A stretch of DNA of 64,000 nucleotides. Source: a virus. Made by a program: the position numbers and the translations under genes. Positions 45,190 to 55,901 of the stretch are shown in pieces. Position 1 is the stretch's first letter. Every line of letters starts with the position of its first letter. The DNA lies in IMG/VR virus record IMGVR_UViG_3300006802_000073, positions 32,001-96,000 of that record; one strand, written 5' to 3'. The notes under the pieces were generated by a model. It saw nothing but the letters and a program-made list of their open reading frames with translations. It made no database searches and had not been told where the DNA came from.

Positions 45190-45315
45190 TTACCCAGACA
45201 CAGACCTAGACCTAGACCTAGACCTAGACCAAGACCCAGACACAGACCTAGACCCAGACCTAGACCTAGACTCAGACCTAGACCTAGAGTATTTTTGTAA
45301 TCTAGAACGAATCAT
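45190..45315 (-). CDS. 41-aa Ser-Arg dipeptide repeat peptide (not in ORF track)
   Basis: MIRSRLQKYSRSRSESRSRSGSRSVSGSWSRSRSRSRSVSG; ATGA overlap with the upstream gene. Confidence 0.6.
   Translation of the reverse strand: MIRSRLQKYSRSRSESRSRSGSRSVSGSWSRSRSRSRSVSG
45193..45288. repeat. Hexamer tandem repeat (CCTAGA)n with variants, 16 units
   Basis: Visible directly; AGA is invariant in every unit. Confidence 0.95.
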
Positions 45316-45575
45316 TTTAGAATACCAAAACTTTCAATAGTTGAAATTTGCACATACCAGTCATTGGGTAATTTTTGTGCATCTCTCCAATTCTTTTCAG
45401 AAAAAGAACCGGTTTCGTAAACGATTGCTGCATCTTCTAATAGAACACAAGAATCGTTCACACCTACGAGTTTGCCTGTGTAGATATAATTCATACAGAA
45501 TAATGTTACACGCTCACCCATTAGCTTAACAAGACCTTCGCCTGCAACTTCAGTCACATTTACAATCTTTTTCAT
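45312..45575 (-). CDS. Sm/LSm-like small beta-barrel protein
   Basis: L..LMGERVTL...YTGKLVGVNDSCVLLEDA resembles the Sm1 motif; WYVQISTIESF resembles Sm2. Confidence 0.55.
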   Translation of the reverse strand: MKKIVNVTEVAGEGLVKLMGERVTLFCMNYIYTGKLVGVNDSCVLLEDAAIVYETGSFSEKNWRDAQKLPNDWYVQISTIESFGILK

Positions 45576-52957: not shown

Positions 52958-53042
52958 TGGTGCGCGGAGCGGGATTCGAACCCGCAAGGCCTTAAGCCGT
53001 CAGATTTTAAGTCTGATGTGTAAACCGTTCCACCACCCGCGC
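52958..53042 (-). tRNA. tRNA-Leu(TAA)
   Basis: TCAGA-CT-TAA-AA-TCTGA; long variable arm; CCA. Confidence 0.92.
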
Positions 53043-53073: not shown

Positions 53074-53149
53074 TGGTCTCTCTGCCTGGATTTGAACCAG
53101 GACCTCTACGTCCCAAACGTAGAACGCTACCGGATTACGCCACAGAGAG
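53074..53149 (-). tRNA. tRNA-Pro(TGG)
   Basis: CTACG-TT-TGG-GA-CGTAG; CCA. Confidence 0.9.
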
Positions 53150-53164
53150 TTTTCTGAGTTATCG

Positions 53165-53432
53165 AGTATAAGTGCTTCTTTCCCGCGGCGGTAACTATAG
53201 CGCATCAGAAACCGCGTAGTCGCAATCCCATCACGCACGCCCCATCCGCTTCACGACCGGGAAAGATTTTCGCATTGCCAGCGTCAGTTAGGTTGGACTG
53301 CGGTTTTCACCGGAGCAGATTCTCCATTCCCATTACTAGGAGTAGGCACTTGCTCAAACCACCCGTAGGTATCATCCTACTTCTCATCGTGCGGGTCACA
53401 CTAGCTGTTGATTAGACAGCACGTTCGTCTAT
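53165..53432 (-). ncRNA. Putative ~270-nt structured non-coding RNA of unknown class
   Basis: GC-rich island with many complementary stems, inside the tRNA cluster. Confidence 0.7.
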
Positions 53433-53579
53433 AACAATTCTATTTCCAAAAGAATCCTATAATAAATCCTGTTATTTTTAATAACTTTCTTTTAATCTTA
53501 CGTCTAAATAATGATCCTAAATCTCTACTACGTTGAAATTCTTTTCTTAATAAACTATTCATATATTCAAATAAAATTT

Positions 53580-53755
53580 TGGTGGGTTCACTTGGGATTG
53601 AACCAGTGACCCAGTTGAACCTTCTTTACTGGTGCCCCGTCAGAGACTTGAACTCTGCCTTATCCGTTATGAGCGGATTACTCTCGACCAGGTGAGTTAC
53701 CAGGGCATTATTTTTAATTCTTGAGTCCGCTGCTTTACCATTAAGCTATAGACCC
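53580..53755 (-). pseudogene. tRNA half-fragments flanking the CAT tRNA
   Basis: 5' half GGGTCTATAGCTTAATGGTAAAGCAGCGGACTCA (53755..53722); 3' T-arm/acceptor fragment ending ACCA (53621..53580). Confidence 0.55.
53630..53706 (-). tRNA. tRNA with CAT anticodon (Met or Ile2)
   Basis: ATCCG-CT-CAT-AA-CGGAT; GTTCAAG; CCA. Confidence 0.8.
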
Positions 53756-53765
53756 GATAAATCTA

Positions 53766-55221: not shown

Positions 55222-55788
55222 TTACGTACTTTTTTGTTTAGATCTTGAATAATCTGGTAAAAAATCTGAAAGAAATTTCATCTGATCATGCAATATACTT
55301 CTATTCTGTAATATTAATCCTTCAGCTCTATCAGGAGTATATGGTATATATAATAATTGCATATTGCATTCTTCTAATAACATATCATCTTTATAAGAAT
55401 TGCATCGAGTACATGCAGTAACACAATTTGTCCAAGTATTAAGTCCACCTCTTGAAACCGGAACAATATGATCTTTTGTTAATCTGTTATCAGAATACTT
55501 TTTTCCGCAATAAGCACACAGATAAAGATCTCTTCTAAAAAGATTTCTATTACTTAATGTAGGAGTTCTACCTTTATAATAAAAATTAGTTTTAAGTGCA
55601 ATGATAGATGATATCTCAATTTTTGATTGAAGACCTGTTATTCTAGAAATTCCACCTCTAAACATAAAGTCTTTATCACCATATTCCCATGCAATCAAAC
55701 CTTTACATTTTAAAATAACTGCATCTTGCCATGGTAACCATGTATGAGGATATCCTCCTTTATTCAAAGCTAAAATGAGATTTTGCAT
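55222..55788 (-). CDS. HNH endonuclease
   Basis: RRDLYLCAYCG...DHIVP.SRGG..W.NCVTAC..CN. Confidence 0.9.
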   Translation of the reverse strand: MQNLILALNKGGYPHTWLPWQDAVILKCKGLIAWEYGDKDFMFRGGISRITGLQSKIEISSIIALKTNFYYKGRTPTLSNRNLFRRDLYLCAYCGKKYSDNRLTKDHIVPVSRGGLNTWTNCVTACTRCNSYKDDMLLEECNMQLLYIPYTPDRAEGLILQNRSILHDQMKFLSDFLPDYSRSKQKST

Positions 55789-55806: not shown

Positions 55807-55901
55807 TGGTCCTCCCAGTAGGATTCGAACCTACGACCTCACGCCTATCTAGCGCTAATACTGGGTATAAACCAGCTGCTCTACCGCTGAGCTATAGGAG
55901 G
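55807..55901 (-). tRNA. tRNA-Ile(TAT) with an extended variable region
   Basis: GCTGG-TT-TAT-AC-CCAGT; canonical D/T arms; 95 nt; promoter at 55921..55948. Confidence 0.75.

Follow-up and report, generated by a model that had tools for sequence, protein, structure and literature searches.

A structured and apparently undescribed RNA family of phages, often encoded within tRNA arrays

Here, we describe a structured RNA class of phages which, as far as can be told, is both real and previously undescribed. It was recognised in a window of 64,000 nucleotides, corresponding to bases 32001-96000 of a 149-kb IMG/VR virus record, where a preliminary description made from the letters alone had claimed a large structured non-coding RNA of unrecognised class. 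That claim has held up: no Rfam family matches the element at any threshold, and strong covariation is seen across its homologues. The gathering of homologues and the accompanying covariation analysis, both suggested at the outset as a check, yielded at least 193 distinct members (nhmmer profile search over all fetched loci), all of them from viral or metagenome contigs, and revealed changes on both sides in 27 of 45 base pairs. We favour, at somewhat better than even chances, the view that this is an uncatalogued, single-copy phage RNA family, processed from tRNA arrays to give a stable, trans-acting RNA that works on tRNA or translation.

The GC-rich island and its relatives

The record can be assigned to a T4-like myovirus on the strength of PHROG matches to a T4-type DNA polymerase, a clamp loader, a DnaB-like helicase and a ribonucleotide reductase. 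Within the window, GC content reaches 0.53-0.545 at positions 53100-53399, as compared to 0.26-0.32 (~30%) in the flanks, in agreement with the GC-rich island originally noted upstream of tRNA-Pro. The element itself spans window positions 53173-53428 on the minus strand, about 250 nt, and represents one member of the RNA family. The island lies between tRNA-Met (53630-53706, minus strand), which is upstream, and tRNA-Pro (UGG) (53074-53149, minus strand), which is directly downstream and separated from the element by a trailer of ~23 nt; beyond tRNA-Pro lies tRNA-Leu (52958-53042, minus strand). On the other side, an ORF of 40 aa (53440-53562, minus strand) stops 8 nt short of the RNA; its product is basic in the N-terminal part and hydrophobic at the C-terminus. 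ORFs that overlap the island are fragments of 30-61 aa only, and the marks of a protein-coding gene (an open frame over the conserved block, codon-like substitution, in-frame indels) were not found. Variation in the family instead takes the form of compensatory changes in stems and helix-sized indels of arbitrary length.

Other tRNA-related features of the window deserve mention. Two tRNA fragments bracket tRNA-Met(CAT) at 53630-53706, within the segment 53585-53765 (minus strand). The upstream fragment (53721-53757) comes from a second tRNA-Met-like gene, of which it retains the 5′ half as far as the anticodon loop, and shares 95% identity over 37 nt with the intact tRNA-Met of another locus (L116:7813-7887), while the downstream fragment (53585-53632) is an acceptor/T-arm minihelix with a CCA end. 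This arrangement looks like a tRNA gene split by insertion or duplication. Farther away, the variable region of tRNA-Ile(UAU) (55807-55901, minus strand) contains a 21-nt insert, the whole gene being 95 nt in length; an HNH endonuclease ORF (55222-55788, minus strand) lies directly downstream of this tRNA.

Relatives of the window copy were first sought in loci fetched via the phage clamp loader, which gave three, with 67-84% identity. Conserved blocks of the first alignment were then used as patterns, giving 10, 54 and 119 stretches from viral contigs, and the same approach applied to metagenome contigs gave at least 120 stretches; a first scan of viral contigs with an exact 28-mer had returned no match. 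We collected 137 complete members, which range in length from 177 to 302 nt (median 248). In size, the contigs that carry them extend from the 150-200 kb of T4-like genomes to the 330-370 kb of jumbo genomes, the latter rated complete or near complete. Most of the carrier phages come from JGI metagenomes that would represent lake samples, a freshwater origin suggested by the accession series of the contigs rather than by metadata. Three family members gave no blastn match among 50,697 cultured phage genomes, even at E<=1, and one exact-pattern scan of 185,579 species genomes (one per prokaryote species) produced a single chance match (L139), which shows no other similarity. Each of 21 long carrier records (21/21) contains one copy of the RNA, and four related T4-like records, two of them complete, have none.

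Ten covarying helices and a kissing-loop interaction

We tested the structure on a 37-sequence alignment (A3), using an RNAalifold consensus that was refined by hand. The alignments are MAFFT and HMM based, and the variable regions D, E and J are poorly aligned in them. Ten helices and a kissing-loop interaction between hairpins A and C are backed by strong covariation. Standard pairs occupy 99.0% of cells in the 37-sequence alignment, as compared to 85% when 3′ partners are shuffled among sequences, and pairing falls to 33-54% when partners are slid by 1-3 columns. Not one of 500 shuffles reaches the real alignment in any of five measures. A single-sequence fold of the window copy is no better than that of shuffled sequences (z = -1.15, not significant), and so proof of the structure comes from covariation and not from folding energy. 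About 60 positions are invariant, most of them in junctions and loops. Seven of the pairings in the preliminary description, namely those of hairpins A (GCUGU/ACAGC), C, D, E and F and of helices H and I, are retained and covary in homologues. Hairpin B, hairpin G, helix J with its possible k-turn, and the A:C kissing loops are parts of the structure that had escaped that first reading.

The 5′ domain consists of three hairpins held together by the A:C kissing loops. It is preceded by a single-stranded leader, ACGAACGU (53421..53428; this and all features below are on the minus strand), for which the family consensus is R-R-ACGU. Hairpin A (53404..53420), with stem GCUGU/ACAGC and loop CUAAUCA, exhibits double changes in 5/5 pairs. 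Hairpin B (53389..53401) has the stem GUGU/GCAC, with covariation in 4/4 stem pairs, and a near-invariant loop, GACCC. The conserved junction GAUGAGAA (53381..53388) joins hairpin B to hairpin C (53365..53380), in which the stem GUAGG/CCUAC covaries and the loop is AUGAUA (family consensus GUGAYA). These assignments displace two of the pairings first proposed. In place of a terminal GUGCU/AGCAC helix, GUGCU belongs to the covarying hairpin A and AGCA pairs with UGGUU; likewise, the strands of a suggested GCACG/CGUGC pseudoknot each have a covarying partner of their own, one in hairpin B and the other in helix J.

In the kissing interaction, AUCA of loop A pairs with UGAU of loop C, forming 4 bp that read AUCA:UGAU or GUCA:UGAC. 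A mutual-information scan of the 37 sequences shows the variable pair as A-U in 19 and G-C in 18, that is, 100% paired with no mismatch. Among the 137 complete members, this pair is A-U in 72, G-C in 47 and G.U in 12; the remaining 6 form a sublineage in which loops A and C contain the same quasi-palindromic sequence, UGUAGCA. Mapped onto a tree of the remainder of the RNA, the state of the pair changes ~21 times. Other sublineages have wholly different yet complementary loops (UAACG:CGUUA and UAAU:AUUA).

Following hairpin C is the invariant segment GGGUGGUU (53357..53364), in which GGGU is the 3′ strand of a probable pseudoknot and UGGUU is the 5′ strand of helix X. The pseudoknot, between ACCC of loop B and GGGU at 53361-53364, is likely, as judged from the sequences, though weakly tested. 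Both strands, which had been paired with each other from the start, are invariant in the 37-sequence alignment, such that covariation barely tests their pairing. What stands is that they are compatible with a pseudoknot and that one compensated double change is seen, in L182, where UACUC is accompanied by GAGU; this change is not matched by the 3′ end. In addition, ten members show a correlated indel, whereby the G of loop B is missing and an extra A precedes GGGU. In one member (L090), the pseudoknot pairing is broken.

A multi-helix junction is closed by helix X, which adjoins helix H on the 3′ strand. Helix X is a long-range pairing of 53357-53361 with 53173-53177, the latter providing the 3′ strand AAGCA (53173..53177). 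Changes in helix X are exclusively wobble-compatible, and all U75C variants carry G344, but its bases are near-invariant and covariation barely tests it. Helix H pairs UCUUUCCCG (53258..53266) with CGGGAAAGA (53177..53185) over 9 bp; two sequence types of this helix exist in the family, with pairing kept by compensation. Helix I also covaries. Its 5′ strands, CG and GCGG (53246..53255), are separated by a conserved UGAA, and its 3′ strands, CCGC and CG (53186..53191), are preceded by a conserved CUAUAGUUA.

Two of the hairpins attached to this core are dispensable. Hairpin D (53313..53355; GAGCA/UGCUC) is peripheral and covarying, and closes a variable extension. Hairpin E (53301..53312; CGGU-GAAA-ACCG), likewise peripheral, has a tetraloop that fits GNRA in all long forms and may be read, more tentatively, as a GNRA cap. 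Both D and E are missing from minimal members of 197-200 nt, such as L121 and L111. Hairpin F (53285..53300; CAGU/ACUG) covaries (G-C 27 / A-U 8) and displays a conserved loop, CCAACCUA, with family consensus NNAACCNA. We considered a pseudoknot between AACC of this loop and GGUU, and rejected it upon finding U75C variants without compensation. Hairpin G (53271..53283) has the stem CGC/GCG (C-G 21 / U-A 16) and a loop of 7 nt, UGGCAAU, whose U1...A5 pattern could be that of a T-loop-like fold.

Arm J (53200..53240) is built on the helix GCGUG/UGCGC, in which double changes are seen in 5/5 pairs, and ends in a variable distal hairpin; this distal part ranges from a few to ~80 nt. At the base of the arm, the alignment columns read GYGUG-NGU-GAUGG opposite YUGA-UGCRC, to which a consensus of the C/D-box type can be fitted in most members. 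In the window copy, the bulge is CGU, followed by GAUGG opposite CUGA, and in some members, for example L121, the bulge is longer. A C/D-box-like kink-turn may thus form at the base of arm J, although this is one of the weaker readings of the sequences.

Placement in tRNA arrays and proposed processing

We surveyed the genomic setting of 122 distinct members that have at least 600 nt of flanking sequence on each side. A tRNA gene on the same strand is found within 3 kb of 98 of these (80%), a tRNA on the opposite strand is found in one case, and 24 have no tRNA. An upstream tRNA is abutted by 49/122 (40%), with a constant offset of 3-6 nt in which CCA is followed by 1-2 nt and then ACGU. In 40/122 (33%), the 5′ end of a downstream tRNA lies no more than 25 nt from the end of the RNA. 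The RNA is hence placed on the tRNA strand, inside phage tRNA arrays, with fixed spacing from neighbouring tRNAs. The link to tRNAs is not obligatory, given the 24 of 122 members that are away from any tRNA.

From the spacing to the upstream CCA and to the next tRNA, release by tRNA-processing enzymes is expected. In the reading we favour, the RNA would be transcribed along with the tRNAs and cut out by the tRNA maturation enzymes of the host. On the 3′ side, RNase P cleavage at the 5′ end of the next tRNA (here tRNA-Pro) would set the 3′ boundary of the precursor; on the 5′ side, a 3′-trailer endonuclease or exonucleases would act after the CCA of the previous tRNA. The product would then accumulate as a compact, stable, trans-acting RNA. 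Our guess, from genomic setting and anatomy only, is that its invariant loops would bind host components, most likely tRNA or the translation apparatus.

This processing scheme draws on analogy with phage T4, whose tRNA cluster includes, immediately behind tRNA-Arg, the species 1 and 2 RNAs encoded by rnaC and rnaD. These are stable RNAs, matured together with the tRNAs of the T4 cluster, and to our knowledge they still have no assigned function. By setting they are the closest counterparts of the new RNA, since both lie in a phage tRNA cluster, on the tRNA strand; moreover, T4 rnaD starts directly after the CCA of tRNA-Arg, as the new RNA does after the CCA of the upstream tRNA in some members. 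The T4 pair are separate RNAs of 119 and 139 nt (together 264 nt), their predicted folds are unlike that of the new RNA, and rnaC has a tRNA-like 3′ arm. Nearly all matches to T4 rnaD (blastn, E<=0.001) are T-even relatives from among the coliphages and other enterobacterial phages, whereas the new family is absent from the cultured phages searched. Homology was tried and rejected, as the family profile found nothing in the T4 tRNA region (nhmmer --max, E<=10).

Copies outside arrays are located in intergenic DNA and would be transcribed from promoters of their own. In one such case (L087), a sigma-70 promoter close to consensus, TTGACA-17-TATAAT, lies about 15 nt ahead of the RNA (L087:3150-3200, minus strand). 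This promoter, together with U-rich 3′ tails in several copies, favours an independent unit. At the same locus, a box similar to the promoter, AAATTTGTTATATA, recurs ~90 nt downstream.

Could the element simply act in cis within the tRNA operon, for example as a processing spacer, terminator, insulator or stabiliser, and have no function as a free RNA? It runs co-linear with tRNAs, directly adjoining them, and several copies have U-rich 3′ tails after helix X. We nonetheless regard this as very improbable. The 24 of 122 copies that are not near any tRNA argue against it, as does the finding of a single copy in each genome, however large the array (10-23 tRNAs in some), and the invariant loops and junctions, together with covarying tertiary contacts, far exceed what a spacer or terminator needs.

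A separate observation concerns a sublineage (L123, L128, L137, L101, L133, L110) in which a spacer of constant length, ~70-77 nt, lies between tRNA-Asp and the RNA. A further small RNA, or a tRNA-like element that escaped detection, may be encoded in this spacer.

Known RNA classes and possible modes of action

Searches against Rfam 15, at the gathering threshold and at E<=10, a check proposed with the preliminary description, found nothing on the element in the window copy or in 15 relatives. The relatives were drawn from two isolated members and 14 loci holding diverse members. These searches did recover the surrounding tRNAs and, elsewhere, a group I intron. The latter (RF00028; L130:4150-4348, minus strand) scores 58.8 bits, above the gathering score, and lies within a tRNA array; the phage contig in question, of 191 kb, is itself a carrier of the new RNA. 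ARAGORN, run on the window, made no tRNA or tmRNA call on the element. Literature searches by topic and by sequence strings turned up no description of the RNA; it, or part of its motif, could nonetheless be one of the 8,495 IMG/VR candidates that PMC10690425 leaves unnamed.

A very divergent version of a known class (RNase P RNA, tmRNA, a group I intron, a T-box, Y RNA or T4 species 1/2) is, in our estimation, exceedingly improbable. Some short features do bring such classes to mind, by eye: GGGUGGU and UACCGCC recall T-box sequence, and T4 rnaD is suggested by AUGAGAA with a hairpin, by UGGUUC and by GCACC at the 3′ side. Against this, 16 family members were searched at E<=10, and not one Rfam model of these classes gave a match on the element. 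RNase P RNA models (bacterial A/B, archaeal, type T) find no match at that level in the window copy or the 15 relatives, and the order of helices differs from that of the RNase P core. A resemblance to RNase P helix P4, raised at first sight, finds no support: relative to the CR-I GGAAAGUC-like and CR-V ACAGAA...GGCUUA-like strands, the window sequence GGGAAAGAAGC is not conserved, and relatives have CAGGGAGGAAGC or GGGGACGCAGAGC. For tmRNA, which combines a tRNA-like acceptor/T-arm domain, including CCA, with a tag frame, neither ARAGORN nor Rfam gives a match on the element, consistent with the initial view that a tmRNA-type tRNA-like end is lacking. For group I introns, there is again no Rfam match on the element, and the flanks are complete tRNAs or intergenic DNA, without exons or splice context. 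For T-box leaders, Rfam is equally silent; GGGUGGU and UACCGCC are ~150 nt apart, and what lies downstream is a tRNA rather than a regulated ORF. The nhmmer search of the T4 tRNA region, described above, adds to this. To the extent that covariance models can detect them, all of RNase P RNA, tmRNA, group I introns, T-box leaders and Y RNAs are excluded.

Large RNAs of other classes were also compared. No Rfam model for GOLLD, ROOL, HEARO, OLE, raiA or other large bacterial RNAs matches. GOLLD and ROOL are large ornate RNAs of phages or bacteria, often beside tRNA genes and known via metagenomes (PMC12286853). The likeness to these RNAs that was pointed out early on is fair for the genomic setting and does not extend to homology. 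The tRNA neighbourhood is common to both; sequence, size and fold are not, GOLLD and ROOL being more than twice the length of the new RNA. The new RNA is not known to multimerise.

Might the RNA be a new ribozyme, acting on tRNA precursors or tRNA ends, or releasing itself beside the upstream CCA in the manner of theta ribozymes, which are small, self-cleaving and folded as double pseudoknots? The HDV-like theta ribozymes of gut phages are found directly beside phage tRNAs (PMC10879173), so that ribozymes in such a position have precedent. The anatomy of the new RNA is also ribozyme-like, with a conserved core, dispensable peripheral helices, and what may be a GNRA loop, a k-turn and a pseudoknot in addition to the kissing loop, and a fixed 1-2 nt separates the upstream CCA from the conserved ACGU. 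At 177-302 nt, however, the new RNA differs from theta ribozymes in its order of helices, and it has no similarity to any Rfam ribozyme model. Furthermore, roughly half of the members lack a tRNA that adjoins them on the upstream side, and complex folds are also typical of riboswitch-like binders and scaffolds. We therefore consider a ribozyme doubtful.

We also looked for a protein partner. No conserved neighbouring protein was found within 4 kb of family members, and L7Ae, RnpA and Ro60/TROVE are absent from 21 carrier and 4 non-carrier records. In a whole-genome comparison of ORFs between 4 carriers and 3 non-carriers, no convincing carrier-specific ORF emerged; the sole ORF present in all other carriers and in no non-carrier is a weak match, at 24% identity, to giant proteins. 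The window also encodes an Sm-like ORF of 87 aa, which overlaps the start of a 41-aa Arg/Ser-repeat ORF (45190-45575, minus strand). As a partner, the Sm-like ORF was rejected, having no homologue in 25 related virus records. Since none of these searches revealed a phage protein inherited together with the RNA, a partner from the host or an activity of the RNA alone is more likely.

Alternatively, the RNA could be a decoy that serves anti-defence or host takeover: a stable RNA tying up some protein of the host, for instance a tRNA-directed nuclease, an RNase or an RNA chaperone. The RNA would in that case travel with the spare tRNAs of the phage, which serve the same arms race. Its location in tRNA arrays is in line with this, any partner would have to be the host's in view of the lack of a phage-encoded one, and the distribution of the family, patchy among related phages yet extending to very different lineages, fits an accessory gene exchanged horizontally. 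On the other hand, no tRNA mimicry is evident. The 7-nt loop of hairpin A has a pyrimidine where tRNA has purine 37, this loop is 5 nt in many members, and Rfam tRNA-clan models have no match on the element. On these grounds, a decoy strikes us as unlikely.

A bolder proposal, to which we give a small chance, is that the RNA accompanies phage tRNA arrays as a new natural ribozyme or as a riboregulator that binds tRNA. For example, tRNA could dock via the T-loop-like UGGCAAU hairpin and via UGGU/UGGC motifs complementary to the NCCA end. The new RNA, at 200-300 nt, would have building blocks in common with the RNase P specificity domain and T-box stem I, namely a k-turn, a T-loop-like hairpin, a GNRA loop and a pseudoknot. 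In both of those tRNA-binding RNAs, T-loops and a k-turn are put to use (PMC4919913). The new RNA differs in having neither the CR-I/CR-V sequences of RNase P nor a contiguous T-box, and Rfam searches detect no sequence or covariance-model similarity to these classes. If the proposal is true, the tRNAs of phage or host would be processed, protected or gated by the RNA in the course of infection.

Few RNA classes combine this size with such structural complexity, and most of those studied are ribozymes, riboswitch-like sensors or cores of ribonucleoproteins. Compared to T4 species 1 and 2, the new family offers a much richer alignment: it comprises no fewer than 193 sequences, its secondary structure is defined and one of its tertiary contacts covaries. 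It is ready for chemical probing, cryo-EM and biochemical tests. The RNA is abundant in metagenomes that, going by accession series, apparently come from lakes, and it is conserved across very different large phages. Its wiring into tRNA arrays points to an unexplored layer in the way phages manage tRNA or translation in their hosts.
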